The notes beneath the pieces were generated by a model that made no database searches, was not told where the DNA came from, and worked only from the letters and a program-made list of their open reading frames with translations. A stretch of DNA of 64,000 nt from Amoebophrya sp. A120 (Eukaryota; Protista; Dinoflagellata). Positions 6,501-49,794 of the stretch are shown here, in pieces. Position 1 is the stretch's first letter. Every line of letters starts with the position of its first letter. Location: positions 8,810,225 to 8,874,224 of the forward strand of contig CAJINV010000002.1 in NCBI GenBank assembly GCA_905178155.1, given 5' to 3'. Both the position numbers and the translations under genes were made by a program.

Positions 6501-9500
6501 TTCTGGCAGGGCTTCCGCCAACTCGGGGTACTCGGTGTGCTGCTGGAGATTTCTTTGCAACTGCGGTTTCGGGTCGTTGTTCCACGCCGTGTTCTGTATT
6601 TTCATCATGTAGAGCATGCGCACGATGTCACTGGGTTTGCGAAGCGTGGCCATATTTTCGAACTCCGTGCCGTCCGGCCACAAATATTCGCGGCATTTAT
6701 CATAGTCGACGTCGGGCTCGTTTTCCAGCAACTGCCGGCCGTCCAAGACACTGTTGCTGTCCATGCAGCCTTTCCGTGTATAGAGCGTGGAAACAGGATC
6801 GTATGCTCGAAAACACGGCACCCAGGTCGGAAGACAAGACTCCTGCAACGCGTACTGGGTGCACTGTTTGATTGTTGTTTCAATGTGTGTCATTTGTCAT
6901 GCATAAAACGCAAGTCATTTTGCATTTCGGATTCGCAAAAAAAAATCAATATCTGCATTTTGGTACCTGCTGTAAAATCCCAGAGTTGTTGCCGCGACGC
7001 GACGTCCTGGAGAGAATGCCGCCGTACGCTTCTATACCCCGCGTACTGGGTATCATTACCGCCGGAAATTGTTCCAAAAAACTTTTCGCTTGTTCCGCCC
7101 CCTCCTTCTCATAAACTATTAACCACTTCCGGATGAGCCAACTATTCTCCATCTTCCCGAGTCCTGCGATCAGCTTACTGGCGATGGGATTTTTCCGCAG
7201 CCCCTTGACCTCCAAGATTTTCTCGAAAAGCTGGAGCTCGAACTTGTGCGAGCCCATGATCGCTCGATCGCGAAAGTGTGTGTAGCAAGCGGCCTTCGTC
7301 GTAGCAGTCTTTGTTGCCTGGATCGCGGATACTTCCTCCTCTTCCAAAAAATGGTACGGAGAACTTTCCAGGAATGCGAGGAAAGAGCGGTGCTGTTGCT
7401 TCAGGTAAAAATCCCGATCGCGACAAATTTCGGCAACTGAAGACTTCCACCCCTGGAGGTCGGATGGCAAATGCGCAAAATCCTCAAGCGTGAGGTCCAA
7501 CCCGGGCTTCATCCCGTAAAGTAACATTCTCTTTTCCATTGAGAGGCGGAGTTGCTGGGTTTTCACGGCCTTTTGCAATACCTGTTTTGTATTAGAACAT
7601 TATTTTTTTTGATGCAGTCGCGAAATAGAGATATTAACGGCCGCAGTGCCCTGATTGTGTATCGCCAGCAAAATGCAAAGCAATTTTCTTAGCATGAAAC
7701 TGCAGTAGTATAACCATAAACGTGTGCGCTTTGCATGACAAAAGCATGATCATCTGTACCCAGAAGAACCCCGCTCCGTAGGTTTCCGCAAATTTGTCCT
7801 CTTGATTCATCCGGAGAGATCGGCGAAGATCGTTTTCGAAGTGGGAATTGGACAAAAACGCCGTGTCCGCTAGCATGCTTGGAGACTGGCTGTAAAAACC
7901 CGCCCGCTGGTTCAAATTCACCCAGCCGATGGCTATGGTGGCCCCATGATAATACAGGGGTGCTCTTTTGCACAGTTCGCATATTAACGCCGCCATCCGA
8001 ATGCTTTCGTCAGCAAGTGTTGCACAGATGGAAACAATCGTGTTCGGATCGTCATCCGGGCCGAGTTTGGTCAGAGTTTCTTCCATCATGTTTCTCCCCT
8101 CCTGTTCCTTCCGCTCCCTTTTTCTCTCATCTAATTCCGTTATCCAGCTTGCAACGTCCCAAAAACCGTCTTGCTTGACCTTGTCGTCTAGCTCCTGCAC
8201 CTCGTCGTGAAAACTCCACACGGCCTTTTCCCTTCTTTTCGTGTTTGGTAGTTTGGCTTTGTTATGTCTGTTCTCGTCATCATCATCGGACTCGGAGTCG
8301 GTTTCAGCGTCGGCTTTGTCGATTGCTGATGTAATTTTGAATTCAAAATTTGAAAACAATTACGAAAGGCCTTACATTTGAAAACTTTGCATGACAAAAC
8401 CATCGGCGAACTACAGATGCAAAAAACAAAAAGTGCTTTTCTCTCTTTCCACTCCTGACCGCTTTTTGTCTTTGAACTGTAGCTTGTTGCAGGATTGGGC
8501 TAGGACGTAATCCAGTTCGAGTTTCTTCCACATGATTAACGAAGGCCTCCCATCTTTCGCAGCAGTTACAAAAATCTCCGAGTCGAGGGCCTTGCGATTT
8601 GGATTCTCGATGTAGAGAAAGCACCGGAATGCGAACCGCAACGTCGTCCACCCTGTTTTCGCGAAAAAACAAGTATAATCCATCTGGCAGAACCGCTCCT
8701 TGCTACTGAAGTTTCCCAATTGCGAGCGGATGAGTTTGCACCGAATCCTCACCGCATCTGCAAAATCCGGACTATCGTACGAGCAGTTGATTTCCGCCTC
8801 CAGATCCTCCCTGAACTCGCCGACCAGTCTGATGATGTCGTTGTCGTCGCAAGATTCGATGACCGCTGTGTAGAAATCGCCAAACTTTATGGAGTGTTTT
8901 CCTTTCGCCGTACTCCTCAGCCTGTAGAGGCGCTTCATCTTCACCGGCAGCATTTTCTCCGCAATTTTGATGGATTGCCGGTTCTCGTCGTGCGGGACGT
9001 CCCAATTGCAAATCGAGGGGCAGTATGAAAGTTAAAGACTCAGATACACATTTCAAAAATCGATCACCGTCGTATTTGTCATGCAGGTTTTCTAGTAGTG
9101 TCGCGCAAACATATATCTGAATCATTTTCACAAGATAAATCCCCGCGCTCAGCGCGCCACTGCGGGTAGGAATTCGCCGAACACTTGTCCATTGTGAAGA
9201 CCGTCGGGATGTCCACTCCAAGCCGGCCCCAATTCGTCAGGAAGGAAATGATCTCCAACAAGGCCGACAGCCAACAGCTGTATTTTTTTTGCTGGTAGGT
9301 GTAGTTGTAATCGGCGGTGTCAAGTTTTTTCAGGAACTTTTGGATATCCTGAAAAGAACCTTCCGGAAGCGCGACGAGCAGCATGCTCAGCGTGAACGCC
9401 TCATCAAGCGTGTCAAACAAAAACCCGCGAATTCGACTTTGAACAAACTCTCGTCCACCTAACCGCACGCCATCCAAGGCGCATCCCACTGCGTGTCCGT

Positions 9501-10082
9501 ACCGGGTATTCATCATCGCGTTGACCTTGATCACCTGCAGAATCCAGCAAACATAACCCAAGACCAGCATTTGTCGTGCTTTTTCCAGATGCTGCGTGAA
9601 GAGCGGGCTGTACGGCACGGCGCACATGGAGATGTGATGAGCGAATGGTAGTTGTTTTCTCCCTGCTTCTGCAATGGTGATAATTACGGGCGTGCGGTCC
9701 TGCAGCTGGTATCCTGAGGTAGAGTGATTTTTTTGAAATATTGCATGACAAATTGCGGAATGTCATTTCACGCAAGTTTATGCATGGCAAAAATCTAAGT
9801 ACCTAATCCCGGACGTTCTTGTGCGTCCCACATTTCGACAATGCGCCCGCACCACTGATTGAAATACTCCGCCATAGTTTCGATGCCCTGATTCAAATTT
9901 TAAGGTCAGCACTGTTTGTCATGCAGATTTCAGTAATCGTGAACAGTCAATATGCATAATCACGCGGACAATAAAAAGCATGCATTTGCTATGCGCAGCG
10001 CCATCAAATAATACTCGCGTCGTCCCATGTTGCAGAAGCCAACCGACAAATTGCTCAGAGGAGAAGTCGACTGTGGGTGTAT
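3523..10082 (-). CDS. Multi-exon DDE transposase-like protein (hAT/P/Kolobok-type RNase H fold), ~1,800 aa; 5' end unresolved
   Basis: Motifs occur in the expected order: CALDG (D at 9472-9474), TMDKCSAN (D at 9187-9189), WDVPH (8990-9001), KERF (~8695) and IPSTRGIEAY (E at 7030-7032). In-frame joins were checked at introns 8326-8454 (GA-AG) and 7582-7759, 6864-6966, 5766-5983, 4372-4488 (GT-AG). Joins near 9030-9130 and 4190-4310 are inferred. Confidence 0.6.
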
Positions 10083-10467
10083 CTGATAAGAAGACTATAA
10101 AGATGCGAAATATTTTCCGACACGCCGAGAAAGGTGCAACAAACTAAAATCGCCAAAATATGACATGCGTTTTTTGGTACAACATAGATGCTTCGAATTT
10201 GTTGGCTTCTTTTGCGCAACACGGTTTTTATTTCCGGACGGACAAATTCGAAACAGTCCTGCCGTCGAATTGTTTCTGCTAAAGTACGCGCAGCTCAAAA
10301 AAGACAAAACGATGCGCAAATCGACAATAAACAACTCAAACGCGAACAATCGCTGTGAGCTAGCTTTTTTGTGCAATTTTGGATGTGCCACTTCTATGCG
10401 CAAGTATCATGCGCGATCAAAGTGCAGCGACGCTGCGTGCAATCATGATGCTGGAGCGCGAAGTAAA

Positions 10468-10541
10468 AGCTCCACGCTCGAGCTCCACGCTCGAGCGTGG
10501 AGCTCGAACGTGGAGCTCGAACGTGGAGCTCGAGCGTGGAG
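10468..10541. repeat. Palindromic array of 13-bp units (CTCGARCGTGGAG)
   Basis: Two units in one orientation are followed by four in the other. 10468-10517 is a loop-less 50-bp palindrome with 24/25 arm match. Confidence 0.9.
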
Positions 10542-10594
10542 GTCCAACTTGGAGCATACTTGTGTATTCTGACGTGCGAAGTTCTGCTGTGTGT

Positions 10595-10810
10595 GATGCT
10601 CAAAAATATGCTCTTTGTTATGCTCAAAAAGTGACTACCTTTTTGACTACCCAAAAATTTCTTAGACCCCACGGCGCGCTCTCTGTTTGCGCGCTCAAAA
10701 TTATGCTTGTTTTTATGCTCAAAATTATGCTTTTTCTTATGCTCAGAATTATGCTCAATCATCGCGCTCTCGCGAGAAGAGCAAGCTCGACGCCTTAGCG
10801 TGATGCTCAA
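10595..10810. repeat. Degenerate ~12-bp-period TATGCT(C) repeats
   Basis: Example: TTATGCTTGTTTTTATGCTCAAAATTATGCTTTTTCTTATGCTCAGAATTATGCTC. Confidence 0.75.
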
Positions 10811-11338
10811 ACGCGGAGATTGATCAAGCAGAGAAGCCTAAAACTACCAAAAGCGGAAGTGCTCGAAAAACCTAAAATGGATTTCGGATTTAGGCTTTCG
10901 CGAAGCCCCCTTTTTTTAAAATGCAGCTTCTTAAAGGCCGCGCTCTTTTACCCATCTTGAATGCGCGCATAAAATTGCAGCGCAGACCTCCAGCTCGCTG
11001 CCGTCCACAGCAAATAAGCACGTGATCCGCATCAAATACAGCATCAACGCTGCGGCGCTTTTCGGCAAAAAGGCTGCTCCCCAAGAGGATTAATAAGCTC
11101 TGGGCATTGTGGCATCAAAATACCATAACACATGTAGAAGGATTGCTACAATAACAAGTATTACACGCTTTTGGCATGATTTGCGCAACAAAAACACTAC
11201 TAAAAAAAGGTAAATATGTACTCGCTTTGCCTGTGAAGGTTATCATCCCGGACATGTGGGCTATGCTAATGAAACGTCGCAGCTTCACCTTGAATGTAGA
11301 TGCTGCGATAAATAACTGTGTTGCTTTACCATACAAAG

Positions 11339-11983
11339 CTACTGCATCCATTCAAGGCAGAACTGCGAGCTACATTTCTTAAACAGACCTTGCATCTGTT
11401 CGACAGGCACAACCTGCCCGAGAAACACGTCCCGAAACACATCTGCTTGGTAGTTGCAGGCGACCAGCGGCTTGATCAGCAGCTCGGCGAAGATTGCGGC
11501 AAACTGCGCCGTCGTATGCTCCAACTTTTTCTTCACACGATTGCTCTGCTCCTCTTTGAAGTACTTCTTACACCGGCCGTTGATCAACATGAAGAACGCG
11601 TCCATCGTCAGCAAATCGGGACCGTCTGACCCTTCCGGAATCATAACCCACTGCTGTTTTTTTGCGGTCTCGGATTGCCCTTGTCGCTGCACGAGGCAGG
11701 TGTGCGTTTCGTTTTTGAAAATCTCCAGCATCAGGGTCAATGCTTTCCCACGGAGCGTGTACTGCTGCAAGAAGTCCTTCTTCGGATGGTCTTGCCACTC
11801 GTCCCGAGTACAGTTGCGAAGGTCCGTGATGGTTTTTACAAAGTGCTCCAGCGGAACACCTAGCAACAGCTCATTGACAGCGATCAAAGGCACGTCTGTC
11901 AACGCCGTTGCCTCAATGTCGATGTCGACGGGGGAAGACCCCGCAAACGACGCCAGTCGTTCCATTTTAATTCTTTTTTTCAC
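11339..11983 (-). CDS. Orphan exon/ORF inside the element; either a separate gene or the N-terminal part of the transposase
   Basis: 214-codon ORF with protein-like composition on the transposase strand. No family recognised. Confidence 0.5.
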   Translation of the reverse strand: MKKRIKMERLASFAGSSPVDIDIEATALTDVPLIAVNELLLGVPLEHFVKTITDLRNCTRDEWQDHPKKDFLQQYTLRGKALTLMLEIFKNETHTCLVQRQGQSETAKKQQWVMIPEGSDGPDLLTMDAFFMLINGRCKKYFKEEQSNRVKKKLEHTTAQFAAIFAELLIKPLVACNYQADVFRDVFLGQVVPVEQMQGLFKKCSSQFCLEWMQ

Positions 11984-12751
11984 ACTACATCTTTCAAATT
12001 ATTCTATCTCTCAGCTTTTTCTATATCGGATAACAGATGCACTCGTCATAAGAAATTTTTTGGTTCGAAAAATACTTTTTGACATAACAAACAAACACAG
12101 CAAATCACTTCAGTAGTTTCATCACCATCGCACTTTCAATTTCACAGCGTATATTTATTCCCAGATATCGAAAAAACATTTTGGACCAAAGAGAACAACG
12201 ATGCTTTGCACTACATTCATTTTTAAACTCTTTTACATCGTGTCCAGTTGCGTTTCCCCAGAAAAAAGCAATAATATGGCCCCAGCAAACTTGTCTGCTA
12301 CCGCTGCAGTCAGTGTTTGCATATAGCAGGAACAGAAAACTCCTGGCTTCATTGATGAAAAAATCAATGGTCTTCGGGACAAATGACAGACAACTAGATT
12401 GTGCAAACTGAGAAAAAGTTTACTTTATCTAGCGTGGATATGGAAAGGCAATCTATGCATTTTTTCCCAAAAAAATTCATTAATTGATACTATTTATTTC
12501 GAGCAGAGCCCCTTCATCATACAAGAAAATGAAATTCAATAATTTTTTACACAGTTGTGAACTACAACTGCTGCTTCGAAATAAAAGTTTTACAAAAAAT
12601 TGTACACGACGTGCAACAAAAAGGCGAAGGAGTTCACTTATATAAAAGTAAGACGATTAATAAGGAACTCGACTTCTAGTCATCTGCTGGCACTCACGCT
12701 TGCCCTACTTGGTGGTCTAATTCTTGTTCTAGAATTACTTGACTCCCTTGA

Positions 12752-15438
12752 CTAGATCAACTCATCCTCAGCAGCATCACTGCTTCCATCATCCATCGTG
12801 ACGAACGGCACCTCGGTACCATCGGCCAGGGTCACGGTCGGAATCTGGGGGTTCAAGATGTCCTCGATTTCTTCTTCCGGAATCTCCTGTTCGACAGCGG
12901 TGCAGTCCATGACTTCCGATCCGTCGTCCAGCAACGTGGAGATCTGTTCCAAGGCGGCGATGGGCACGCCACGGGCGGCGTTCTCGACCATGGAGACGTT
13001 CAGGTCGACGCGGACCGTCGAGGGAACTTGCGCTTCCCCAGCAGTAGTACTCATAGTGCGGCGGCGCTTCGTGTCCGGCTCAGCAATCACTTCTTCGTCC
13101 ACCTCCATCGGAGCGGCGGTAGACTCAGAACCACTGGCAACCGCAGCGGGCGCAGACGTGGCGTTGGAGATGATACCAGTGGGGGCCGCGGCCACGGGGA
13201 CAGAGGTGGTCGTCACAGGCACGTTAACGTTGGTGGGCTGCGCCAACATCGGGGTGACCGGAGGAGCCGGCTTGGCCACCTTCGGCAAGGACTTCTTCTT
13301 GAAACCGCTGCTCTTCGGGGCAGAACCGGCCTTGCTCACGACCGAGGCGGCACGCTGACCCGCTGTTTAGTTTTTGTTTGTAAATTGACAATTATCAAGC
13401 ATGATGAGTCTTTGCATCTTATCATGCACCAAAAGCAAAAAAAACTACCTTGATTCGGTTCGTCGGTCGGCAACAACGTCTGGATTCCAGACGTTGTTGC
13501 CGACCGACACTGGATCGAGGCGGGCTTGGCCTTGGACGGCGGAGCAGCTTTTGTTCGAATATTGATTATATTGCAATCGATCACAATCGTGCTCGCATCA
13601 AAACCAGTTCTGCATGACAAAAACATTATACCCTTCTGCTTCGGCTGCACATTCGCACCAAGGGATCCTTGCGAAAACAACAACCGCTGCGGCTCAATGG
13701 CGTTGTTGGAAGACGGGGTGTGAAACAGTCCTCCAAACGCAGACCCCATGGTCGAATCGACGTTCTGTTCGGCATTCGGGTCCAGCGGCGGCTGCGATTG
13801 CAGATCGGGAGACAAGGACGCCTGCGCCGCCATCTCGGTCTGCACGGTCTCCTTAATGCCGGCCATCAACTTCGACTCCATCTGCACCATACTGGTCTGC
13901 ATCAGGTTCTGCATCATCGCCAACAAGGCCTGCTGGTCGAGACCTGAGTATAATATTTTATGATAATACGCATGGTATAAAATGGCAAGCGATCACTTTT
14001 CAACACAAACTAAAAAAAATTATACCCAGTCCCGCACCCGCGGCTGCAGCAGCAGGAGCTTTCGCCACCGGAGCTTTCGCCTTCACCACCGGAGTAGCAG
14101 CAGCTTTCACCTTCGGATTAGCAGCAGGCGGCGCTGCCACCGGCGCTGCCGCAGCAGCAGCCGCAGCGTCCGGCATCGGCGTGTCGTCGACGGCAGCAGC
14201 AGCCGCACCAGCAGCTGGCTGCTCACCACCTTCTTGTCCCTCCTGCGGCAAAAATTCGGCGTCCATGATCACGTCGTTCTGCGGGGCGGCTCCCAAAGGA
14301 AGTTGACCACGGCGACCACGGCCGGCGATTCGTTCGGGGCTGGCCAAGGTGAACTCACCCAAACCATACATCGTCGGCTGGTACGTGGTCGTGTACAAAT
14401 ATGCAATGCAAATTTCAACACCGACCATCAGAGGCACTACGACAATACCGTATCAAATACATTACCTAGACACAACACACACAAACACAACATGCGTACT
14501 GTTTCTCATATTTCCACGCAAAGCCTCTCAGTCGGTGTATAGTTTTCAAAGGCATATTTCTCCCCACAACATGGCGATCTCCTCGTCCGACATGTCCGGG
14601 TCGTAGAACTTGTGCAAAGTGGTGAACCACAGCTCCAAAATGCGACGCTCAGACGCAGTTTGCAGCGGTTCGAGCACACGGACAACCTGAAGCAAGTTTT
14701 TAAGTGAAGGCTTGTATAATTTCGAGATTGCATCCACCATGTCGCATGCTGATTAAAAAAAAGCAATAATTTCTGTACCTCCAACCAGGATTCGCGGTAG
14801 CTGCACGTGATGCGGGCGGTCGCGGCGTGGATCAACAAGTTTATGCTATGAAAAATCGCACACAAAGCAACCTAAACGCAAGCACTCTCTTCGCATCACA
14901 GAATTTTTTATGCATAAAGCAGGACATTTTTTCAATCTGAAGACCGGTGCTCATCATGCAAAAATTTGCTTTGCGTAAGCAGCAGGTTTCTGCCACTTCG
15001 TGGGAAGTTCCCAAGTTGCGGGGGGCTGGGAATCCTGCAGATCATGAACACGGCCAGAAGGAGCCTCGCGGCAGACGTGCAGGTGTACTGGATCTCGCCG
15101 ATCTGTGGGTGATTTAATGTGTATTTCAAATGAGATAATAAAACGCGCAAGAATTTCATATACATATCTATGATGCTGTGCAAAAAAAAAACAAACATTT
15201 ATACCTCGACGGAGTCCTGGACGGCGACCAGGAGGCATTTCGTCAACATTGAAAGAGCAAGTTGAACCCACGCCCGGCTTACTTGGCCACTGCCAGTATT
15301 TAATAAGGTAGAAGCCACACCTCCACTGCGGGATCTCACCGTGGAGGTTTCGATCAGATTGCCCCGCGGCGGAGGGTTGCGCTCGTTGTTGTTCTGGCCA
15401 TTGCCATTGCCGGCATTGCCAGCGTTGTTATTCTGCAT
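12752..15438 (-). CDS. Multi-exon orphan cargo protein of the element, with a helical N-terminal part and an Ala/Pro-rich, acidic, probably disordered C-terminus
   Basis: A chain of GC-rich exons (MQNNNAG..., IGEIQYTC..., MVDAISKL..., YQPTMYGL..., QQALLAMMQ..., SKAGSAPK...DELI*) is separated by short AT-rich introns. Confidence 0.6.
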
Positions 15439-16271
15439 TTTGAAGTTGTGGCTTGAACTGCTGATCGCAGACAAGAAGACTTTTTTCGCTCACACTCAGC
15501 TACGGTTTTTGATTGAAAAGAGAATTTGTGATGCGCGGATGAAAAAATTGCTGTCTTTTGAAATCTCGAAGCCACAAATAAAAAATGAAGTTGCTCAACA
15601 ACAATTACACACTACAAAAGTACCCAATTGAATTACTACAATAATGCTATATGATCTCTATGGGGAGAAGTGCAAATGTCTATTTGGAAATTGCTGAGGG
15701 GATCCCGCATTATCGTCTTGTTTTGAAAGTACAACTCTCGAGATTATGTGTGATGTGTGGAAACAGAAACTCACGCTACGGGGACACACACTAAAACACT
15801 CAAAAAATATCTATCACAGACACGCTTCGCATTGCACTTTTTTCACAGAAACAAACTCTTTCTATTGTCATGAACGCAGCTCTAGTGAAAAAACGCACAG
15901 ACCTTTGCTCTGCAATACATCTCCACACTCCAACGCAAAAAAACGCAACTCAATTTATGCAGTGGAGTCTTGTGCTTTAGATTGGTTGAACGTACGGAAA
16001 TTCTCAACACGGTGGGGCTTAGTTTTGGATAAGTGAGAAAGTGTTGCTTCGGCTACACAAAATTTGCAGAACTATGGAGCTGTAGTTGGAGATTGATGAT
16101 CGTTTTCCGCATATCTTTCAAGCATTGCTTTGTGGAACACAATCATCAGAAAAGTTATGAAGTCGTATGGCTGGTTCTGCCACAGGTCAAGCACACATCG
16201 CCGCAGGTGCAAATTTTTGAAATCGCAAAGGTATTACGACGCTCACGCATACAAGTAAAAGCGCTGCAAAT

Positions 16272-17406
16272 TTACTTGATTATGTTCAGTAGAGAGCTTT
16301 CGATCGTTTGCAAAGCGTTCTGTCGCATCAAGGGCAAGATCATTTTCACTTTTCGAGCATCTTTTTCATTTTCCCATAAGCCCTCAGCTTCAGACGTTTT
16401 CTTCAAAAAAATCAAGTAGTAATTCCAGTTTGCGAATCTTTCACTATCGCCAGGGAAGCTCCGCACTGCTGGAAAGTACAGAAGCTGCACGTCCAAAACC
16501 ATCATCTGTATCAACGTAAAGATCTTGAAGTCCATCTTCAAGAAGCGGCGGCTCTCGATGATCTTCATCAAGTTGATCAGCTTTTCGGGATTGTCGCGGA
16601 CGGAATGCCACTCCTCAAACGATGCAAATGAAAAAACAAAATCAGTCACTAGCTGATGGTGCTAAATTTTTCGCAAATCGGTTTTTTAAAATTTCCAAGC
16701 ATCACACACTGCATAAATGCGATGCGCATTACAAACATGCAAACCGCAATGGTTTTGATTTTGTGTCTTCAAGCCATACAAGGAAGAAGTCGAAGCTGAG
16801 CTGCAAGTTGGTCAGCTCGGCGGATGGACCACGGTGATGATGGCCTCCACGGCGATACTCGATGACTTCGGGTGCAAGGCGAATGAGGTCTCCAACGTGG
16901 AATTTTGGACGCCATGTACGCGAGCCATACTTCCCATCCGGCGGCAAGAAGAAGCACTCCATCTTGAACAACAAAACTGCTATGATGCTCTGTGCTCTTG
17001 TGCTCTATGCACACTTTGTCAACTACAAAACGAAGGCAATATCAAAACACTTGGTCAAGTCGCAGTATGTGAGGCGCACGCTCCGAAATGCCTGAAGTCA
17101 CTTCATCAATTTTGCCGCCTGAAATTTTACATCAAAACCTCTAGCAGATCTTAGAACAGATCATCGGCGCGTCATCTTGTCTTTGAAAATTGAATGACTC
17201 TGTCATGCATAAACGCAGATCTTTTGCAGCAAAAGCACAAAGCCGTCGTGCGAGCCTGGTGGGCGGTCTTCTTCAACAAGATGGCTGGCATTACCTGGGT
17301 GAGTAGTAATTTGTGGATCAGCACTGCATTGCATGAATTCTATTTGATTTTGCTCGTCATTCGCTCTCTCAATGTGAAACACAAGCACAACAGCAAAATG
17401 GCTCAA
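16272..17406 (-). CDS. Multi-exon orphan cargo gene; ends uncertain
   Basis: Protein-like exons at 17203-17406, 16729-16974 and 16272-16649 are separated by AT-rich gaps. Confidence 0.4.
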
Positions 17407-17690
17407 GCTGTATCGAAGTCAGCGAGCTGGGCAGGGCGGATTACTCACTCATACTTTTACAGCGCGGCGCCTGTACAATGACCAGTCGGTGCGCGGTCAG
17501 TCCAGCTCGACCAGAGCTGCTTCCGTGTATCCACGCAATGGACTCCATATAAGATCGGCCCCCTGCTTCAGGCAGGAGGCTGGTACTGTAATCGCGGACC
17601 GCGACCAATACTGGCGCGCCATTTGAAAGGCGCGCAATATGCCGAGCCCGCCAATGGGGCCCGGCGGGGCATTGGCCCCAGTTGGTAAGA

Positions 17691-18045
17691 TGCTACAGCT
17701 GCAAGCAAGGAAGCGCCGAAACTTTTCGCGAACAACCGGAAGGCTTCGGCGTCCCGTTTTTCCGCGATCGGCGCCGAGGAGCTCGTAAACGGACTCCGGA
17801 GACGCCGCGGCGCAGGCACGGGACAGCTGCTTCAGGCCGTCCTCCGTCACAAGGCAGCTTGCAAACCTGTGACGTGTGCCAGCGCCCGGGAGCGGGAAGT
17901 TTTTTGCATGACGCCGGAAGCCCTTCAGGAACATCCGGATCTGCGTCTTTCCGTTCCCGCGCGTTGTACCGGGCGCACGCGCTCCTCACTCACTCCTTCT
18001 TTTCCAAGGAGGTGAAGAGGCGGGCCCGGGCTCGCAGCTGTAGCA
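17691..18045. mobile_element. Nested GC-rich TIR element (MITE/introner-like) inside the giant element
   Basis: TGCTACAGCTGCAAGC (17691-17706) matches the reverse complement of 18030-18045 at 15/16. AAGA is directly repeated at 17687-17690 and 18046-18049. Confidence 0.55.
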
Positions 18046-18571
18046 AAGAAGGCGCGGAAGCGCCGCCCGAAAAGGGCGCACCACTATGGTGCCACACAGA
18101 AGCTAGTTTCTTTATTGGAAATGGTTTCTCGCCTTCGCTCCGCCAGCTCCTCTCGCTTGTCTCTCCCTCCCCTCTTGCTTTTTATTATTCAAAAAAAAAC
18201 CTCTATACTCAGGACCTGTAAGACGCCTCCGGACTGCATTGAAAAACTTCGGGTCTGCCGCGCTTCATCAGTTGCGAGTCCGTGCTGCGCAAATCGATGC
18301 CGCCTTCGCTGGAACAACCTGGCTAATATGCGTAGCGAAATATTTCCACGCCACATCTACTTATCAACTTCTATAATTATTTTCGCTAGGAATACGTCAA
18401 TGCAAATTCGAGATGGTAACTAATGCAATCGCTTTCATTTATATCTACCCTCTACCACATATAGAGTTGCCATTCATTTTTTCCAAGAGTTGGCCATGTA
18501 TAAATTCCACGGCAGCCATTTTATCATGCAACGGTGCATATGTATGGTTTTTTTTCCGCGCTTGCGCTAGT

Positions 18572-18623
18572 GCATATGAAATTTTTAAGTATGTTCTTGA
18601 GTATGTATTTCGTGTAGCCTTAA
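18572..18623 (-). repeat. Right terminal inverted repeat of the giant element
   Basis: The reverse complement reads TTAAGGCTACACGAAATACATACTCAAGAACATACTTAAAAATTTCATATGC. Confidence 0.8.
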
Positions 18624-19179
18624 ATCAGCAAATATGAAATTGTGGACAGCTCCTAGAAAGCGATCTCACATCATTTGCTTTTCCTCTACTGACTTTGCAC
18701 CATGATGGTTCTTGTTGTATTTCCGACTGTTAACAGGATTGTATAGCAACGATTTGGGGGGAATAATATTACGATAACGATAAAGCGATATCAATTCATG
18801 TCTAAAAAAAGGCTCTATGTGCTGCAATTCCTAGTACGGAAATGATCAGTAGGGTTCAAAACTCTCGGAGGTTCGACGAAGGCAAGGATTTTCAAGCGCT
18901 CTAGAACAGCGCATCAAGCTTTATCCGGCAAAGCCGTACTTTTGATGCGCCGGAGGTGTTGTTCGGCCTTCGGAGGTTCTACGAGACAGATAAAACTTTG
19001 GTCTAACGATTGTACAAATTGCCCGCTTTTTTTCCAAAACCGAAAAAAGATCGTCTTTTTTCTCTTTTCCGCGACATATTTGATTCTACACTAGGTTAGA
19101 AACTACGTAGACGTACACATGTACGAATAACTCCAATAAATATCTTCCATTCTACAAAAAATAGCAAGTACGTTCATTT

Positions 19180-19779
19180 TTACAGCAACAATCCCATTCC
19201 CAAGCCGAGGGCCAATCCGCCCACCATGGCGCCCGGCACCGGGTCATAGTAGCCGTACGGGTAGCCATAGCCGTAGCCGTACGGGCGGCCGTAGTACCCG
19301 CCATAGGGATAGGGACGGGCGTACACCACCTGCGGGGGCGGCTGCTGCACCACCACCGTGGTTGGTTGCTGCGGTTGCTGCACCACAACAGGCCTGGAAG
19401 CCTGTTGCTGCACCTGGGGCTGCGGGGCCGTGCTGACTTGACGCCTGCGTCCCTGCGACACCGATTCGACCTTGAGCTTGTCGCTCTGGCCGGGCGCAAG
19501 CTTCTCCCCGGGCTTGAGCTTCAGCTGATCGCCTTTATTCAACCGGACGACCTTTTTGGAACCGTCCTTGCGGATAATGGTGACGTCGATCGGCGCGGGC
19601 TTGCTTTCGGATTGTTGTTGAGAATTCCGGGAAGGGGTCGGAACCGGAGGGTCAACCGGAGCCTTGGAAGACCGCGGAGCCGCGGGCTCAATGGTCTGTG
19701 GGTAGGAGGAAATTTCCGGCATTTTGTGTGTGGCGGTCTCTTCTTGCGGAGCCTTTTGCTTGCTCTGCTTGTTTCCCAT
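19180..19779 (-). CDS. Small Pro/Gly/Tyr-rich protein with a possible N-myristoylation motif (MGNKQS) and a C-terminal Gly-zipper hydrophobic tail; paralog A
   Basis: Intact 199-aa ORF that shares a ~40-aa domain and the tail with 27147-28180. Confidence 0.8.
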   Translation of the reverse strand: MGNKQSKQKAPQEETATHKMPEISSYPQTIEPAAPRSSKAPVDPPVPTPSRNSQQQSESKPAPIDVTIIRKDGSKKVVRLNKGDQLKLKPGEKLAPGQSDKLKVESVSQGRRRQVSTAPQPQVQQQASRPVVVQQPQQPTTVVVQQPPPQVVYARPYPYGGYYGRPYGYGYGYPYGYYDPVPGAMVGGLALGLGMGLLL

Positions 19780-21761
19780 AAAGATAAAGGTGATTTATGA
19801 AAGAAGATCCGCAAACTGTAGCGTAGTGGGTCGTTACAGAACTTGTCAAGTACGTAAAAGAAGTAAAAAAAGTCGGGAAAATAGTTGATAAAAGAGGTCG
19901 ATCGATTAGCAGGTTGCTTGTTTCCAAAGTTGTCAAAATAAATGATGCGGGAACTGTTGCAAAATTAAGTGGATGTGGAGTTTTCTTTGGAGTTTTTGGA
20001 ACATAAGTTTCACAACGGCAAAAGAACTACAGGCGCCGCCTTAAGCTAAATGATCTTTGATGTTTACCGACACTTCTGGATCGATCACATTTATCCCAAA
20101 GATCTGAAATTTTTTTTGTCTCTTCAGTCAAGTCATTTATCAAGCGACAATTGCAATTTATTCAGAACTTTTTGTTTATATGCACCGAATGGTCGCTGAA
20201 GCTTGATCGAAGTGAAAATGTCACAGGAGGAGTATGTTTCTTCGCGACATGTGCACGATGAAGGGTCGATCTTTGCCAGAGGTCGCTTGTTACTTAGCAC
20301 CGACATTCGGGAACGTGTAGTGCCAATGCACATTTGACACGCATGCTGCAGAAAATCCACCTCTTTCCAGAAAAGAACAATTGCAATGGACTTCTCTTTC
20401 ACTACACTTCTTTGACCCTCACGCTAAGACACGGTGAGAGGCGACTCACCAGGTAGCGCAATAAATGATTTTTTCTTGAAATTCTCTAGTATGTTTCCAA
20501 ATAATACTACACAAATTTGGTTCATGATGATTATGACGATATTTGTTCTTTCGGTTTTGCATGTTGAATCAGTTTTTCTCTTTTTGTCATGCTGAGAAGT
20601 CCGTCAGCAAGATCCAAAGTTCATCTCGAAGTAGGGATTGTGGGATGCGCTCGGACATGATTTCGCCGTTGGTCGCCGATGCTTCGCATAGGATTCGAAT
20701 GAAAAAACTCTGCAAAGAAATGCAAAACGCAGCCAGCCATAATTATCTCTTGTCTTCGTCACAAAGATGACAGCGCTATCATCATCATCATCTACTTAAC
20801 AGCACTGGGCGGTTTTGTTTGACCTCAAACGAAAACGGAGTGTGGGTTTTCCGTGAATTTTAAAGTAGGCATTCGTCCTTCCTCTCCTGGTTGAGAGGCC
20901 ACATCAAGGAAGTCGTCATTGTCGTGGTTCTTTTTCGGAAAGGCGAACAAGAGGAAGTAGACCCTTTTTTTGCTACAAGTTTGCGTAAGGCCTGCTTTGT
21001 CGAAACAATAAGAATCGCTTAACAAGTGCGCTTCGACCTCAAAAATTAAAATCCCATTACGGAACAACAAAAGAATAAAAAAACAAAAGTTTCGGATTCT
21101 ACATTCTATAATTAAATCTTTTTACTGGATTAGACAAAAAAGTTTCAGCTATACATAGTACTACTACTAACAAGAAAAGTACAGAAAGAAAAAATGTACA
21201 TTTTGAAAAAGAAAATGCGAGGAAAGTGCCAATACGTGTAAAAAGAGAGCACGGTCGTTTATGTTCATCTATTGTTTGTAGCTTTCGTCCTTTCCTTGCT
21301 TTTTGTAGAAGTTGACCCTGATGAACTACTTACACTTACACGTGACGGACTCGGAGGTGCGTCTTGATTTACTGATATAAAAATAGTGTAGAAGTCTTGT
21401 ATTAATTTACAAATATTGATTTTTTAAACGTGGAACAAGAAAGGCGATGGACTAGATAGGAACGTAAGCGGCTGTGCATGCAGCTGCGGGAGTTCAGCGC
21501 CAGGAAATTGGCACAAATCAAACAGAAACGAAGCGACTGCAACTAGCTCGCGGCCAAATTACGCTGCGGCCTTTATCTGTTGTTCTTGTTCTGCGACTGA
21601 GAAGGGTAACGCTAAGGCGGCACTCCAGCAAGCGATACACCAGATTCATATGTTTCACGCTGTCGCAGTCGCTACGTCTCTGGTTTTCTATCTTTCACAT
21701 TGCAGCACTCACATTTGTTCTTACTGGGTGAAATTCTTGTTGCTGTGTTCTCCAGTTGATT

Positions 21762-31216: not shown

Positions 31217-33117
31217 TCAAAATGTTTGCCCCGGCTTGTTGACCTGAAAGCGCACGTCGCCTTTTTCAAAGAAGTCCACGATTTGCTTAGCCGCAGCGAT
31301 GCCGGCGTTGTTGTTTGCCTCCGACGTCTGCGCTCCCATCTTCTTTTTGGTGACAAAACACCTCTTCTTGCTAGCGTTGAGTTGTTCCATGTCAAAGGTT
31401 GGGGCGACGTCAGAGATGTAGGAAAGATCAGCACCTGATAGAGGAAACAATCAGACACAATATTGATTCGAATCTGCTGCAAAAGAAAACCTATTTCATA
31501 CTTTTCTGCATCACCAGCTGCCACTCTGCTAAGTGTAAGCGCGTACAGCGATGAAGAAAAGTGCAAAGTAAACACAATGAATTGCTAGGTTTCAAGTACG
31601 TTCCGCGAACGCCTCCAGCAGTCCTGCTTCGTGGACAACCTCGGCTCGAGCGGTATTGACCAAAACCCCGTTCTTTGGCATTTTTAGCAGGAAATCCTTT
31701 CCAATCGATTCCTTCGTTTCCGGAGTGCAGGGAATGTGGAGGGAAACAAAGTTCGCGTCGAAAAGTTCTGCTACCTGATATGATAATTATGACCCGGCTG
31801 TACTTTTTAGCAGGTCCCTATTTGCTGTCGTGCGCGGCGCGCGACCATTTTTTCTGCGTCTGATCCTGATACAAAGAACAAGAAGATTTATTGCGCAAGG
31901 AAAAACACAGACAATCTTGCGTTTCTTGTGACCAAAAGTCCGATACCGACCCCACTGGCACTGCGCCGGCACTTTCAATGTCTTCCTTCTTCAAAAAAGG
32001 GTCGTATGCCAGCACTTTCATTTCGATATCCTGTGTAAAAACGTCCCCACACCATAGTTGTCATGCAACTCTGCATGCTTAAAATGTTTCTCATGCGGAG
32101 CCCCACGAGAAGCATTTTCTAATGCGGTTTTGAAATTTGTCATGCTCCAATCAGCATGAGCTACTAGACCTGTAATGCTGCTGAACTAGCTCAAACAGCA
32201 CTACACTACGCGTCCAAATTTGTCATGCGCAGCAATCAAAGCTGTGGGATTTGTTTAGCAGATTTCCCATGTTGACTCTGGTGTGGGGACGTTTTTACAC
32301 AGGATATTCGAAGCCCTTCGCCAATCGGAACATGTTCCTCGCTACCTGCCCGAACCCGTGCAGGGCCAGCGTCTTGCCCTGAATAAATTGGAGAGTTTTC
32401 TCTTTATCAAAAGCTGGCGCAGCACGGTACTAATCAGCAGCCAAGGCAACAGCAGCGAGGACTCCACATAAAAAATAGCATGCACCCTGAAGATGATCTT
32501 AATGCCTTTAAACAAAAAACACCCTTCGCCCCTCCTTCTTACCTTCAACTCGTAGCCAGAGCTTCCGTCGTAGTGGTTTCTGATTTGTGTGATCATCATG
32601 CCAAAGGCAAGCTCAGCCACCGCATTCGAGTTCTGCCCCGGTGTATTCATAACGACCATACCTTGAAACATTTTTCGTACCTCTGTCTGGTGCAGCTAAA
32701 AATTTATCAGCAGCGCGCTCGTGATGGACCAGCTCTGTTGCAATAATTGAAAGAAACCGTGCCGAAGTCGCTGGTCCTTTTGCCACAGCACATGGCATTA
32801 GCAAGCACTACTTCTTTTCGCCTCTATTTACCTCTTTCGGTCGCCGCATTTAGGTCAATCGTGTCGACCCCGGCTCCCGCCCGGACGATGAGCTTCAGCG
32901 AATCCTTGCAGGCGTCCATAATTTCGGCCGTCATTTTGTCGGACCTCACGATCGCAGCTTCGGACTTTGCCAATGCGGTTTTGAGCTCTCCCACATCCTT
33001 GTAGTTTTCCAACTTTTCCAGCGTGTAACCCGCATGCTTCAGCACATCGTCGATCTGGGCCACCGCCGGGCCGGCGAAAGGCTTTTCCGTAGCCAGCAGA
33101 ACGGAGTGGGCCGGCAT
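31217..33117 (-). CDS. PHGDH: D-3-phosphoglycerate dehydrogenase, short type IIIK (Lys in place of the catalytic His), six exons
   Basis: Motifs IVRSD, IVRAGAGVDTID, NTPGQNSNAVAEL, GKTLALHGFGQVA, AYDPF, SLHIP, LVNTAR and TKKKMGAQT. Introns 32662-32831, 32379-32542, 31775-31946 and 31435-31599 are GT-AG; one non-canonical intron lies at ~32022-32306. Confidence 0.9.
32027..32306. mobile_element. TIR introner (non-canonical intron) in PHGDH
   Basis: Perfect 28-bp TIR TATCCTGTGTAAAAACGTCCCCACACCA with TTCGA duplicated (32022-32026, 32307-32311). Removal restores KGFEMKV. Confidence 0.93.
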
Positions 33118-33676: not shown

Positions 33677-36600
33677 TCAATACTTGAAGCCATTAAGCAG
33701 GCTCGCGGCCGCCTTCTCGATCATGTCAAAGTTGGTTCCTCCCCCCCGGGATGATGTTGTAGTTGTTCCTGAAAACGCAGGAGTAGTTGTATGATTCATG
33801 GTAGCGTTAGAGAGAAAATTTGAATTCGAACTATCTTCCTGCGCTACGAAATTTGGGTCCTGTTTTCTCAACAACGCAAGTTTTTCCGCAGTAATGGCTC
33901 CCGTGTCTAGGAACGCCCGTGTCTTCACCAAAATCGCATTCACGTCGATTGTCCCCAGTTCGCGCACCTCTCGCGCCCATTGACCGATGATCTCCTCTGG
34001 CCGTTCCGGCCCGGCGTTTTTATCCGGCGCGTTTTGGGAGGTCGGGCGGTCTTTACTCATGTTCACCACGGTCATGGCGCACAGAGCAATGAACAGAGCG
34101 AACATCGCCTTCGGACCCTCTAGGATGAACACGTCCCAGCACCGAATCAGTGCGGGAAGGGGTAAAGTGTGACCGAACAAACACAGGAAGGGGTCGACCG
34201 CGAAAAACAGGAGGTCGAGGTTCGCCGCATGAATTTTCTGCAGAAACTTCGGGCATAGTTCCTGCATCAACTTCTCCAACACGTTGATGTCCACCATCAG
34301 ACTCTTCATGCTCACAGAATGGTAGTTGGGCGTCAGATGCTGCAGAATCTCGCAAAACAAATCAAACTCCTGTTGCCGCTCTTCCGCGAAGGGATCTGAT
34401 AGTAGATGCACGACCTGTTCTTGTTCCAGCTCTTCCTTGGACTGCTTCTGGTCGTGTACAGTTGTTTCCTGATGTGCGAGGGCCATTGTTCCGCTTGGCG
34501 ATGCAAGACGTTGTTGCTGTTCAGCTGGTCGTGCTTCGTGTGCGTCACTACTCATGGCAGCTGCATCTGCCGCTTCCACGATGACGAGATCTTCGTGACT
34601 GCTCTTAGTGGATGTGACAGCTGCACCTCCCGTCGTGCAGTTCTCCTTGAGAGGACTGTTGATGTGCCGGAAATCGGAGTGCAAGAATACCAAAACGCCT
34701 GCAATCACGTTCATGCTTTGGCAATACCCTATGACGGGATTGAAAACGCAGTAGGCTTTCAGAATCTTTCGCACGGCGTCGCGCTGCCAGTCCTCCGTTA
34801 GCGCCTTCGGCAGCGTGCGAGGGAGATCAACTTCGATTTGCCGCACTACGTAGTTCGGGATCTGATACGACTGCGATGATGTGGCAGTGGCCGTGACGGA
34901 GGAGCTTATCATGTTATCGACATGCGGAGGCTCGCCTTCTTCTCGCCCTGGTCCTGTCCCCGTGTCGAACGAAGACGTCGCTGGACTCGCTTGCGCGCTC
35001 GCTTTTTGAAAAAGTTGCAACTCTTCCACGACCGCGGACCCGTACTTTCGTTCGAACAACGATAGCTGTCTGGGATAAATTCTGCTTCTCTCGACTTGCT
35101 CCGGTATCATCTCAGGTGCGCCACGGGTCGTGCCAGGAGTTGTTCTGCCGGCGTGCCACCTCAACAGCTCCTGCCATAGTCTCGCTCTGCGGTCCCCTGG
35201 AATGCCGAACTCGTAGCACAGCTGCCGGATTTTGCTCAGCTTTTCAGTATTGATGTGAAGTTGCGAATCTTCTTGGTTACTATCTCCTTGAAACATGATT
35301 CCAAAAAAATCGGGCGCAATTATTCCAGCGTCGTTCCACGCGCGCAACTGCGCTTCCGTGCACTCCGGAAGTTGCGGCGAATCCAGAGACAGGAGCTCGT
35401 CCTCTGATAGGACCAGGATCCAATTGTCAGACAGTTCCTCCATCATCTTTTCCATGGTGTCATTTTTCTCACCGGCATGTTTCTTTTTCTGTTCCTTCGC
35501 AGCACCGGAAGTAGATTTGTAGTTGCCACCAGTATAATGTTTGCTACTCGAACTGGAGCTGTTACTGCTCCCGACGCGAAATTTCGCGACGGAATGCTTT
35601 AGCCGGTTTTTCAGGGTCCACGCAGACCGTGGCTTCGCGTTGAACGAGAAGGGAGATTGAGTTTGCTGACTGTGCGACAGGCCAGTGGGGTTCGGATGCG
35701 GATGGGGATGCGCGGAGGAACTATAACTTCCTACCCCACCAGTACCTCGTGCTGCGTCTCCTACCGCGAGCGGTGAAGCCAGTGGAGGCGGCAGATGAAC
35801 TACTGCTCCACCTGAGTCGACAGTGTGAGAACTTTTGCTCCTGGATGAACCGCTTACAGTTGCGCTTTGTTCTTGGAGCCGAAGGCTTTCACAACTATGA
35901 AACACGTGCGCCGTGACAGACTGGGCCAAAATCCGACTGTTCACGTTTGTTCTCGCCGAATTCAGCGCGTTCTTTCCCACCACACCCTTCACAAGATGTT
36001 GCTCTTCCTGTGAAGACGCGGTAGAAGTTCTGGCACTTCCCCAACCAGCATCTACCCAACTCCCCCCGGAATTGTCCAGCCTGCGCAGGACTTCCGCGTC
36101 TGTGCACACGTGTCGCACCGTCTGCAGATCGCACTTCTTCAGAAAATTCACCAGCAGCCGTACCTGTTCCCTCGGGGGGAAATCGAGCAATTGGTCGACG
36201 AAGGTTCTCGCTGGCTGAGGTGGACCAACTACACCTTGTGCTGTTGGCACCGGGTTCTTCTCCGTCGTGTCAGCCGATCGCGATTTCGACTTCGATGACC
36301 GCGAACCTCCTGCAGACGTGCTCGAGCTTGATATGCAATGCAACAAAATCGTTCTAGTCGTAATTGCAAGACAATAAAACTTTTTCCACAAACACAATCG
36401 GTATCAGAGAACGAAATTGGAAATAATAGACAACAAAGCATGCAAGTTTGTTTGCCACTGTTGCTGTTGCAGAAGTGTAGTTACAACTAGTACGAACACG
36501 CTACATTTGCACAGGATACTTGCGGAATGAAACCAGCTCGAGATGAGGCCCGCTCTTGAGGACGAGGTCTTCGAAGCAGTTCCTGCTCCACTCGCGGGCG

Positions 36601-45460: not shown

Positions 45461-48222
45461 TTAACATCTACTTACTTCTTCCTCCGTATTTACATCGATG
45501 CTCAGCATCGAAACGCCAGCGACATCAGAAGTACTACTACACTCGTGCGGCCCAGTACCACTTCTACCGGTGCTGTGCTTTGGGCTACTTGTAACAGCAG
45601 GCCTTACGCGACCATCAACGATGTCTGTCCTGTCATGGTTCGTGTAGTTTTTACCGCACAGACATGCGGGACCAGACGAGTTGGTCGCCACTTCACTTGC
45701 CTTACCTCTGTCCTTCCACCCCCTGGTACTACTACTTAGGCTTGTCTTTGATGTTTTCTTTTCGCTCTCCTCTGCGTGGAATATTAAATCGCTCTGGTTG
45801 CTGTTCGTTGCACCAGAGGCCGACGCGGACCCGCCCTCCGTCCCGCTGCCGCTGCTCGATGAAGATGGTCGCGAAAAACAGGAATGTTGATGGTGCCCAT
45901 CAAAATTGTCTGCCTTGTGACTCTGTTGCGCCAGCAGCTCCACCCGTGAAGTAGCACTAACACAGGCATCCGCGGTCTGCAACACTGCTCCAGAAGAGTC
46001 CCCTCCCTCTACCTTGGCAGACGTCGTCGCGCCAGCACCTTCTCCTGCAGCGGAAATCATGCTTGCGTTCTTGTTTTTCTTCTTGCCGTTCATTTTGTTC
46101 AGGAAGAGAAACCAGTCACAAACCGCAGGCAAGGCCTTCAGCGACCGCTTTACCGAAAGTCTCCGTCCCGACTTGAGGAACATCACGATCTGGTCCTGGT
46201 CCTCGCCCGCACTTCCTCCTCCTTCCGCAGCAGCAGTATTTTTCGCGCTGCTCTTCTCGTAGGTCCGCTCTCTGCTCTGCTCCAGTTGTCTTTCTGCTTT
46301 CCGTCTCTCTGCTTGGAGCTCTCGTTCAAGCTTGATCATGATGTACTCGTACGTTGTTAAACCGTTCCACCAGAGGTACAAGTGCAACAAGCAGAGTTGG
46401 TTATTTAGGAACCAGAAGGGCAGGTTGATGACGAGAAGGACGGCGTAGAGCGTGGGATGCAACGCGGAACAGAAGTAGGCCACGTGACGATCATCGCTCT
46501 GTTCCGGGCCGCACTTGGACCACAGGAGTTCGGACACAGTCGGGCTCTCGAGGAGAACGAGGTTGGAGTTATTTTCATTTTCCCTGCTCCTGTGCTGATC
46601 CTCGTCGATTTCCATGTTCAGGTACAAGTGTAGCAGGATGAACACGATCAAGTTTACCATGGTGCACACCACCGCCACGGCGCAGATGGCGACGGCAAAG
46701 AATTTGTAGTTTCTCTTTCCGATGCAGGTGTTCAGCCAGACGCAGTGGTGGTCAAAGTGCAGCACACACTTGTTGCACTCCGTGCAATGCTTCGAACTGT
46801 TGTGCACCTTGGAGCGACAAATCGTGCAGTACAACAGGTCGAGGTCCTGGTCATCATTTTCCTCAATTTCTGCTAGCTGCACTGCTTGTTGCCCTGCTTT
46901 CGTCCCATGATCTTCACGGTGGCAGTGGTTTTGTTCATTTTTATCGTCGTCTTCCACGACATCAACACCGACCTTCTGCTGGTACAGCTTTTTTTTCCTC
47001 CCCGCCGCGAGAAGCCCCCGCTGGTGCCCGTTCACCAGTATCGCTATCAAATGTAAAAGTGTCTGGGTCTGGATCTGGAAGAGTCATGCTGTTTTTGCAT
47101 GACACAGAAGGGCTGGCATGGAAGCTCTAGCGTCACAGGTGTCGAAAAGCTTCCGTAATGCCGAATCCGCATGACAAATCCCCCATTTTGGTCACAGAAA
47201 GTGGCCAGCTTTTGCTACCTATGCATGAGAGATCTTTCTGTGTTCTGAAATGCGCATCACAAGTTTGTATTCTTCCAGACCCAGACATTTTTGCAATGCA
47301 CAATCGCGACGCAGCCGCAAAACGCCGACCCGAGAGAAACACAGAGTTTGACGCAGTACTCGGTGACCAGTTTGTGCACAAACCTTTTCCACAAACCGTC
47401 CTTCCGGCGCTCGGGGTAGCGGCGATCGGCTGGGGCCAGGGGGTCCGCTGGGTCGATCTCGTGGGCCAAGTAGGCTGCGACGTAGAGCACCAAAAGCGAG
47501 AGGTAAAAACCAACGTTGCAGCAGACGAGGCAAATGGCTAGTGCTTTGTTCGTCGATGCGGGGGCGGAGGACGACAGTAAGGCGAGTGATTGCGGGAACA
47601 GAAACCAGGATATCAGGACCATGTCCAACCCAAAAATCCACCAGGAAGCAATCTGGGCGATCCGCAAGGGCCGCTGCCACCCGTTGCGCCGAGACGGCTC
47701 TACGTCCAATGCAACGGAGGAATTGGCAATCATTTTCTTTTTCAAAGCCGCCGAGCTATTATTTTTCTGGTGCTGCTGGCGCTGCTCGTGTTGCAGCAGC
47801 TCGTGGTGCTGGTTGTTGGTTCTCGCAGCTTCCAGTTGGCACGTCAGCTTCAAGCTTTGTTCATCAGGATCGCGGCGATTACACGCCGCCGGAGTTGTTG
47901 TGCCGATTCGAGTCTGCTTTGTCTTCGATGCAGTTTGACAATTGTCGCTGGTGGTACTATTTTTTCCAGCACAAATTTTTATTTCAAGACCGCGATGATC
48001 ATGCCCCTCCTGTTCGGTTGTCGTGTAGTCAAGTAGTTCATCATGATTTTCTCGCCAAGGACTGTTTGCGGCGGCCCCAGCACCAGCATTCTTTGCTGCT
48101 TCCCTTTCGCCAACAGCAGCTTCTTTGTGCTTCGAATCGGAGCAGCCGCGCATGTAGAGAGCCGGCGGGAAGGGCAAAATGTCATCGCTACAGCCATCCT
48201 CAGAACACAACAAGGGAGCCAT
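45461..48222 (-). CDS. DHHC palmitoyl-S-acyltransferase
   Basis: [16 protein letters not shown]...[33 protein letters not shown] and LTTYEY. Removing 47050-47294 fuses the ORFs in frame. Confidence 0.93.
47054..47293. mobile_element. TIR introner in the DHHC gene
   Basis: TIR TAAAAGTGTCTGGGTCTGGA versus CAAAAATGTCTGGGTCTGGA, with flanks AAATG/CAATG and no GT-AG ends. Confidence 0.85.
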
Positions 48223-49768: not shown

Positions 49769-49794
49769 GAAATTAATCTCCAAGGCAGCTTCCG

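Follow-up and report, generated by a model that had tools for sequence, protein, structure and literature searches.

A short DNA motif common to introner families of Amoebophrya, putatively a binding site of the machinery that moves them

The assembly of the dinoflagellate Amoebophrya sp. A120 carries some 30,000 introners, which make up 17% of it, and in the account of Farhat et al. (2021, PMC7789003) these elements end in TAT followed by seven nucleotides and AAA, while those of Amoebophrya A25 start with TTA-purine-purine-G. The same account reports that no transposase was found in A120 and uses that absence to rule out general transposase-mediated mobilisation; among 21 of the 58 A120 rows of Gozashti et al. 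(2025, PMC12130899), the introners are mostly classed as ‘TIR DNA, Unknown’ (TIR, terminal inverted repeat). Here, we describe a 10-bp motif that recurs on both strands of a 64,000-nt window of this genome (GCA_905178155.1, contig CAJINV010000002.1, positions 8,810,225 to 8,874,224; all positions below are those of the window unless a related locus is named). The motif occurs both in introners and in a 15.9-kb element with a gene for a large protein resembling DDE transposases, and it may be a binding site used in the mobilisation of introners. The introners studied here share with those described from A120 (PMC7789003, PMC12130899) the ends of TAT, seven nucleotides and AAA, the short direct repeats, the non-canonical junctions and a length of about 150–320 nt; beyond what the published descriptions of the A120 elements give, their families have an internal motif in common and their duplications are uniformly 5 bp long, and a transposase-like gene is present in the genome. 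The start published for the A25 introners is that of the 15.9-kb element.

Several described transposon systems resemble the one considered here. As reported for the hAT element Herves (motif CG/AATTCAT; PMC3143072, where Ac, Tol2 and Tag1 are also cited), a short motif of 8–10 bp with variants lies inside the ends, asymmetrically between them, and is likely bound cooperatively; binding was shown in Herves and is proposed for our motif. It further differs from the hAT repeats in coming with a 5-bp duplication, in being one motif over many families and in having sites throughout the whole 150–320-nt element. The usual target duplication of hAT elements is 8 bp, and a subgroup with 5 bp, hAT5, exists; the duplications of the introners and of the 15.9-kb element are both 5 bp long, not the 8 bp of hAT proper. 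The descriptions of the miniature inverted-repeat transposable element Emigrant with Lemi1 (PMC1636448) and of AtMu1 with BRODYAGA2 (bioRxiv 10.64898/2026.08.24.746577) provide examples of non-autonomous elements that share motifs bound by the transposase of a related autonomous element; those pairs belong to other superfamilies, whereas the introners here are probably removed as introns and their autonomous partner is at most a candidate. Finally, VANDAL21 is a large DNA transposon with several genes, and the YAGTATTAY sites of VANC21 are, as described in PMC5735166, confined to its introns and remaining non-coding DNA apart from sporadic copies elsewhere, much like our motif, but they form dense tandem arrays within one family, in contrast to the one site per intron, the fixed end distances and the many families observed here.

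The exact 10-mer occurs 11 times in the window, five times on the plus and six times on the minus strand; dinucleotide shuffles contain 0.23 copies on average and never more than 2. There are 32 matches with one mismatch where 6.2 are expected (among them copies at 4261, 17199–17208, 32057, 47097, 53648 and 60900). Two local tandem arrays aside, no other 10-mer in the window is as strongly over-represented. The 8-mer GCATGACA is found 18 times in the 30 kb of non-coding DNA, for which Markov models of orders 1–4 trained on that DNA predict 1.3–2.3 copies, and not once in the 34 kb of hand-curated coding exons; the flanks of its copies in the window have no repeat in common. A preliminary description of the window, made from its letters, had listed the same 11 exact copies, all of which we found, as well as a set of near-copies that are likewise present, the one given as 58846 being the 8-mer GCATGACA at 58845. 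It had placed almost all copies in introns or introners, and 10 of the 11 are indeed so located: six in introns of the transposase-like gene, one in an intron of the second gene of the 15.9-kb element and three in two introners, with the copy at 20583 standing alone. The statement does not carry over to host introns, which mostly lack the motif, and the ‘roughly one per intron’ given for the transposase amounts to a single exact copy in each of six of its nine inferred introns.

Related loci were obtained by scanning metagenome contigs with a 17-letter piece of an introner end from the PHGDH gene of the window; of at least 118 loci, we analysed 38 long ones that come from a single record set and total 358 kb, used as controls 42 long ones unrelated to them and only counted 38 short ones. 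The record set is Amoebophrya-like, with a myosin exon 54% identical to an A25 protein and introners up to 94% identical to those of the window. Its 38 loci contain 274 exact copies, an approximately 50-fold excess over the 5.3 expected under an order-3 Markov model, and the control loci contain one in about 410 kb. The consensus derived from single substitutions, GCAT[G>C,T]A[C>G]A[A>G][A>G] and often a T next, has sharp column-specific preferences. By a coding model with 92.5% agreement with the hand curation that trained it, 273 of the 274 copies are non-coding, and 253 of them lie in repeated sequence; the density falls from 2.57 exact copies per kb in elements and 1.97 in other or decayed repeats to 0.098 in unique non-coding and 0.007 in coding DNA. 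Among 42 unique intron-like segments of these loci, one contains the exact word and nine contain the consensus, some being visibly decayed elements. Because of these densities and the single exact copy in unique intron-like segments, the motif is one of mobile DNA and no general intron signal. The enrichment of introns over exons, proposed as a check in the preliminary description and run here on the window and the related loci, was thus seen as confinement to non-coding DNA, carried by mobile DNA and not by introns generally; and while most copies do come from dispersed repeats, these form many families and not the one unrelated repeat whose copies were named as a possible trivial source. Longer fold-back elements with arms built of several motif copies, beginning a few bases inside the end, were also seen in the related loci (L022 12110–12636, L051 11861–12550 and L047 8262–8767).

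The introners are non-coding inverted-repeat elements, and we collected 289 of the TAT...ATA type, four of them in the window, which form 12 families of at least two members and 12 singletons. At least one consensus site is present in 284 of the 289, with family means of 1.3–4.1 sites per element. In 251 elements picked with no duplication criterion, a perfect 5-bp target duplication was found 174 times and any other length between 3 and 10 at most twice; when inverted-repeat candidates with a 5-bp duplication were allowed any start, 202 began with TAT and every other triplet appeared in at most four. A is found at positions 11–13 in 0.86–0.94 of the element ends, the signature of TAT, seven nucleotides and AAA. 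With the motif and the outer 16 nt masked, the eight largest families have no BLAST links among them. The motif itself is conserved: when the sites defined in one half of a family's members were scored in the remaining half, the held-out identity in seven families was 0.82–0.91 for the motif and 0.78–0.92 for the inverted repeat, against 0.62–0.76 for the other interior, and the motif exceeded the other interior in 30 of 30 splits in each family. A test for open frames across the element junctions gave 276–281 of 285 at every offset and had no discrimination.

The PHGDH gene, whose first exon is 100% identical to an Amoebophrya sp. A120 protein and 65% to the A25 protein, shows one introner in its context. 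Mapping the annotated protein P0001 to the gene leaves four canonical introns, all lacking the motif, and one non-canonical 285-nt gap (32306–32022), which equals a 280-nt inverted-repeat element plus one copy of the 5-bp duplication, the skip being read from the annotated protein. The element has six consensus sites, all facing one end and 31, 61, 90, 110, 143 and 193 nt from it, those at 32136 and 32219 being exact. Decayed members of introner families with no consensus site are present at 36332–36518, 58558–58652 and 59075–59343.

The sites have a consistent geometry. Outward-facing sites are never less than 24 bp from the end that they face, with peaks at 31–32 and 39–43 bp; the modal distances of 15 family ends are 31 (four ends), 32 (two), 39, 41 (four), 42 (two), 43 and 52, which fit a period of about 10.5 bp (Rayleigh R 0.87, reached in none of 20,000 random draws), and family 0 is bimodal with 32 and 39–41. 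Neighbouring sites of the same direction are spaced by 18–20, 30–33, 39 or 48–50 bp and never by 9–17 or 22–24, a spacing of 31–33 recurring in six families. There is no strand bias with respect to the host gene: over 164 elements, sense sites number 258 and antisense sites 303. In family 1 all sites face one end, and of the 35 members (out of 55) whose direction could be assigned, 18 run with the host gene and 17 against it. With this lack of bias, a branch point or any other plain RNA signal is excluded, as had been argued from the presence of both orientations. A spliceosomal branch point or other intronic RNA signal is rejected also by the near absence of exact copies from unique intron-like segments, and an RBFOX-like RNA site fails on the same strand symmetry. 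The apicomplexan motif TGCATGCA does not fit either, the base before GCAT being A, T or C and our motif not being palindromic.

The 15.9-kb element lies within a highly expressed gene (19183–19794, minus strand), in its 3' untranslated region, and is flanked by two copies of ATCAG (2741–2745 and 18624–18628), a 5-bp duplication; both its ends start with TTA-purine-purine-G. In RNA run X4, 7131 of 7611 reads of which are at least 99% alike to the window, 1115 reads join 2740 to 18624, lacking the element and one ATCAG copy, and there is almost no depth inside; the 0 reads of run X5 and the 3 of run X6 are too few to inform. The join represents either an empty allele in the strain of X4 or splicing of a 15.9-kb intron. 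The contigs of run X1 break at both ends of the element, the ends recur at other loci and the interior has single-copy depth. Nearby, at 19042, a homopolymer is longer by one A in 1036 of 1294 X4 reads than in the X1 contigs, either a difference between strains or an artefact of slippage. Seven exact motif copies are present in the 7.6 kb of non-coding DNA of the element, where the rate of unique DNA predicts 0.74 (p 1e-5), and the exact copies in six of the nine introns of the transposase-like gene compare with one in the 42 host segments (p 3e-5). Among these introns, cutting out the insert at 9137–9019 together with 5 nt restores the frame and the spacing that homologs have before the DxxH residues; as it has TAT...ATA ends and these five extra bases are needed for frame and spacing, it is likely an old introner in which the motif has outlived the inverted repeat, the remnant of the latter being weak (p=0.023, uncorrected for the 25 segments tested). 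In the other introns of the gene, a profile search matched no introner family beyond the motif (E >=0.03). Between the first two parts of the gene lie a palindromic 13-nt tandem array (10463–10553) and a 24-nt repeat with motif-like variants (10574–10748), one of which, at 10614, is a one-mismatch copy. The element contains further intron-containing genes at 12770–15440 (the second gene, with approximate borders) and 16275–16930 (minus strand), one of them Ala/Pro-rich; they match no known family and are candidates for a helper DNA-binding protein.

DDE transposases with a DxxH insertion domain, the hAT/MULE/P/Transib group, have the residues D, D, C/DxxH and a distal E. The exons of the large gene match P0059–P0062, proteins of 1059–2161 residues all from Amoebophrya A25 and AT5.2, in order and exon after exon (tblastn E down to 2e-28) with in-frame GT-AG junctions. 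D81 and D176 are invariant in three of three sequences, DxxH is present in all three that cover it and the distal E in five of five, an order which we take to be that of hAT/MULE-type transposases. The label ‘transposase’ rests on this residue pattern and on the ends of the element rather than on a family match, and the protein is thus a putative one. The family of P0059–P0062 is Amoebophrya-specific and has a Cys/His-rich C-terminus; its A120 record is a 64-residue piece only.

Motif copies, elements and the transposase-like gene in the window (strand as read in the window; ‘.’, no strand assigned)
Feature	Position	Strand	Remarks
15.9-kb element	2746..18623	.	imperfect 52-nt terminal inverted repeats 2746–2797 / 18572–18623, 77% complementary (inverted repeat I10)
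Multi-exon gene for large DDE-transposase-like protein (inferred)	3526..10143	-	possible first exon 11342–11998
Exact motif	6893..6902	-	inferred intron 6966–6864 (GT-AG)
Exact motif, antisense	7733..7742	+	inferred intron 7759–7582 (GT-AG)
Exact motif, antisense	8389..8398	+	intron of uncertain borders (about 8430–8326)
Exact motif	9075..9084	-	inferred non-canonical intron 9137–9019 (decayed TAT...ATA insert)
Exact motif, antisense	9743..9752	+	inferred intron 9802–9714 (GT-AG)
Exact motif	9915..9924	-	inferred intron 10014–9888 (GT-AG)
Exact motif, antisense	13612..13621	+	intron (about 13632–13549) of the second gene of the element
Lone exact motif in non-coding DNA	20583..20592	-	no element assigned
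280-nt TAT...ATA introner, family 1, PHGDH gene	32027..32306	.	duplication TCGAA; P0001 skips the element and one duplicate
Introner, family 0, DHHC gene	47045..47302	.	duplication ATCGC; copies 47097, 47169 (exact), 47223, 47254; nhmmer E 1e-68
Decayed family-4 element	53499..53739	.	copies 53557, 53648, 53679; nhmmer E 2e-9
Decayed family-1 element	53777..54043	.	one variant copy at 53831; nhmmer E 6e-13
Family-2 element	58800..58995	.	duplication GGACC; copies 58845, 58900
Family-7 element, second ABC1-like kinase gene	60769..61090	.	duplication TTGTA; copies 60900, 60965, opposite directions

We consider it reasonably probable, from the sequence and by analogy with the systems above, that the motif is a double-stranded DNA binding site of the transposase, or of a helper, that would mobilise the introners. 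As in described subterminal repeats, which the cognate transposase binds and which transposition requires, a short conserved motif lies at set positions inside the terminal repeats, and since the distances to the ends are fixed and the conservation equals that of the inverted repeats, a subterminal site is favoured over a general mark of chromatin or introns. Of the two options offered in the preliminary description, a transposase subterminal site or a chromatin mark, it is thus the former that gains; its wider proposal of a DNA-level binding site shared by the element and the introners agrees with the strand independence and the presence in both, except that the sites in the 15.9-kb element are internal, not subterminal. 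In such a mechanism, protein subunits would be loaded on the sites along one face of the helix and would bring the catalytic unit into place at the TAT-N7-AAA end; a copy would need intact sites to leave progeny, selection acting through the ability to move. More tentatively, the strong sites that occur singly in introns of the 15.9-kb element might bind the same protein, as internal enhancers or sites of self-regulation, and at least one of them probably remains from an introner that once inserted into the gene.

A number of observations weigh against the binding-site reading. The 15.9-kb element, the only candidate partner examined, does not share the ends of the introners collected here, its ends being TTA and not TAT; its outer 50 bp on either side are free of consensus sites and there is none 31–43 bp inside, while all seven of its exact copies lie in introns far from the ends, which is not what a subterminal site predicts. 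Because of the TTA ends and the lack of end-proximal sites, the element, seemingly a relative of the introner system, may not be the mobiliser of the introners. The large protein had no Pfam match at E 10, none in a word-index search and no transposase among Protein Data Bank (PDB) sequences, and AlphaFold gave a model of low reliability (pLDDT 36), in which three successive strands surround the first D. The test for the 10.5-bp period of the end distances omits the 9 of 24 family ends with no recurrent outward site, and the two ends of one family are not fully independent in it; for the spacing from site to site, a 16-nt period fits as well as one of 10.5 nt (0.68 vs 0.53). Inward-facing sites are found at both ends of family 2 and one end of family 4. 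Unmasked family profiles cross-match weakly and a remote common ancestry of the families is thus possible, and the related loci, picked through the end of one family, are biased to introner-rich genes and not a random sample of the genome. Two further points, the lone copies in host DNA and the coincidence of element ends with splice junctions, count against it as well and are taken up with the alternatives that they favour.

The motif could instead be recognised by a DNA-binding protein of the host, mobile DNA being selected to carry it because the protein is a cofactor of transposition, organises chromatin or protects from silencing. That one motif serves families with unrelated interiors and an element with different ends would suit this explanation, as would the 11 lone exact copies in unique host non-coding DNA, where 0.6 are expected; yet the motif is 26 times denser in elements than in that DNA, the decayed elements at 36332–36518 and 58558–58652 have lost it within host genes and the lone copies may be older relics, which makes a host factor rather unlikely. 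An anti-silencing role modelled on VANC, whose binding leads to loss of DNA methylation, in which an accessory protein of large elements would bind the motif in non-coding parts and keep elements active while the introners ride along, strikes us as decidedly unlikely. The 15.9-kb element does have further genes of no matched family and copies in introns, like the VANC21 sites in VANDAL21, and the arrays of family 1 are of the same direction, as described for VANC21 (PMC5735166). VANC21, according to the same paper, needs dense arrays, whereas in the 15.9-kb element the sites come one to an intron and point either way, and the introner sites keep fixed distances from the ends and lie outside tandem repeats.

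Related to the removal of these elements from transcripts, a protein bound to the DNA, or less likely to the RNA, might mark the inserts for splicing of non-canonical introns in an organism in which U1 small nuclear RNA has not been found. The element ends are the splice junctions, and the fixed end distances fit a role in splicing too; the non-canonical intron 9137–9019 kept its exact site while the inverted repeat and the duplication eroded, and U1 was not detected in A25 or A120 in the survey of Farhat et al. (PMC7789003). Nevertheless, we find such a mark very improbable: the lack of orientation bias rules out a plain RNA signal, five of the six introns that bear the motif in the transposase-like gene can be read with GT-AG borders in frame and, in a comparison of 37 exon-flanked with 201 other elements that relies on a weak classification, the former conserve the motif no better (0.915 vs 0.907, p 0.43). 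A bolder combination, on which we would place little weight, is that the protein bound to the DNA has two roles, moving the introners and tagging them for excision from transcripts, and so replaces normal splice-site recognition where U1 is undetectable, and that the 15.9-kb element is a giant introner, spliced whole and encoding the missing transposase family. Finally, the motif might have persisted neutrally from a single ancestral repeat or have arisen through composition, for instance by CpG decay. Repeats do contain most copies, single-linkage clustering joined 285 repeat intervals, and GCAT and TGCA are frequent in non-coding DNA; but the sharp consensus, the excess over the order-3 Markov model and the lack of similarity across families after masking all speak against it, and the held-out conservation at the level of the inverted repeats largely refutes it, leaving it hardly credible.

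The rest of the window has some features of its own. Its long reading frames are on the minus strand, and it contains two pairs of paralogous genes: 19183–19794 and 27150–27755, encoding Tyr/Gly/Pro-rich proteins, and the ABC1-like kinases at 53976–57308 and 59323–62265. Both kinases have an intron in the same part of the gene, the sequences of which are unrelated, and a recognisable introner is found in only one. A separate fold-back element with arms of 15–16-nt GC-rich tandem units (49085–49250 and 49647–49770) does not carry the motif, and palindromic tandem arrays with 54/69-nt and other units (63430–64000) extend past the window end.

Introners themselves were known, as were subterminal binding repeats as a kind of feature. 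In the literature and most supplements of the introner papers, with the logos in figures outside the search, we found no published motif common to introner families, no phasing to the ends and no transposase-like gene in A120. Overall, our analyses bear on how the A120 introners move, for which the published work had ruled out a general transposase route (PMC7789003). A single cut-and-paste system is again suggested by a conserved motif phased to the ends across otherwise unrelated families, by target duplications of a uniform 5 bp and by a large DDE-like protein specific to Amoebophrya. With a defined DNA probe and a candidate enzyme in hand, the question of introner mobilisation becomes testable.

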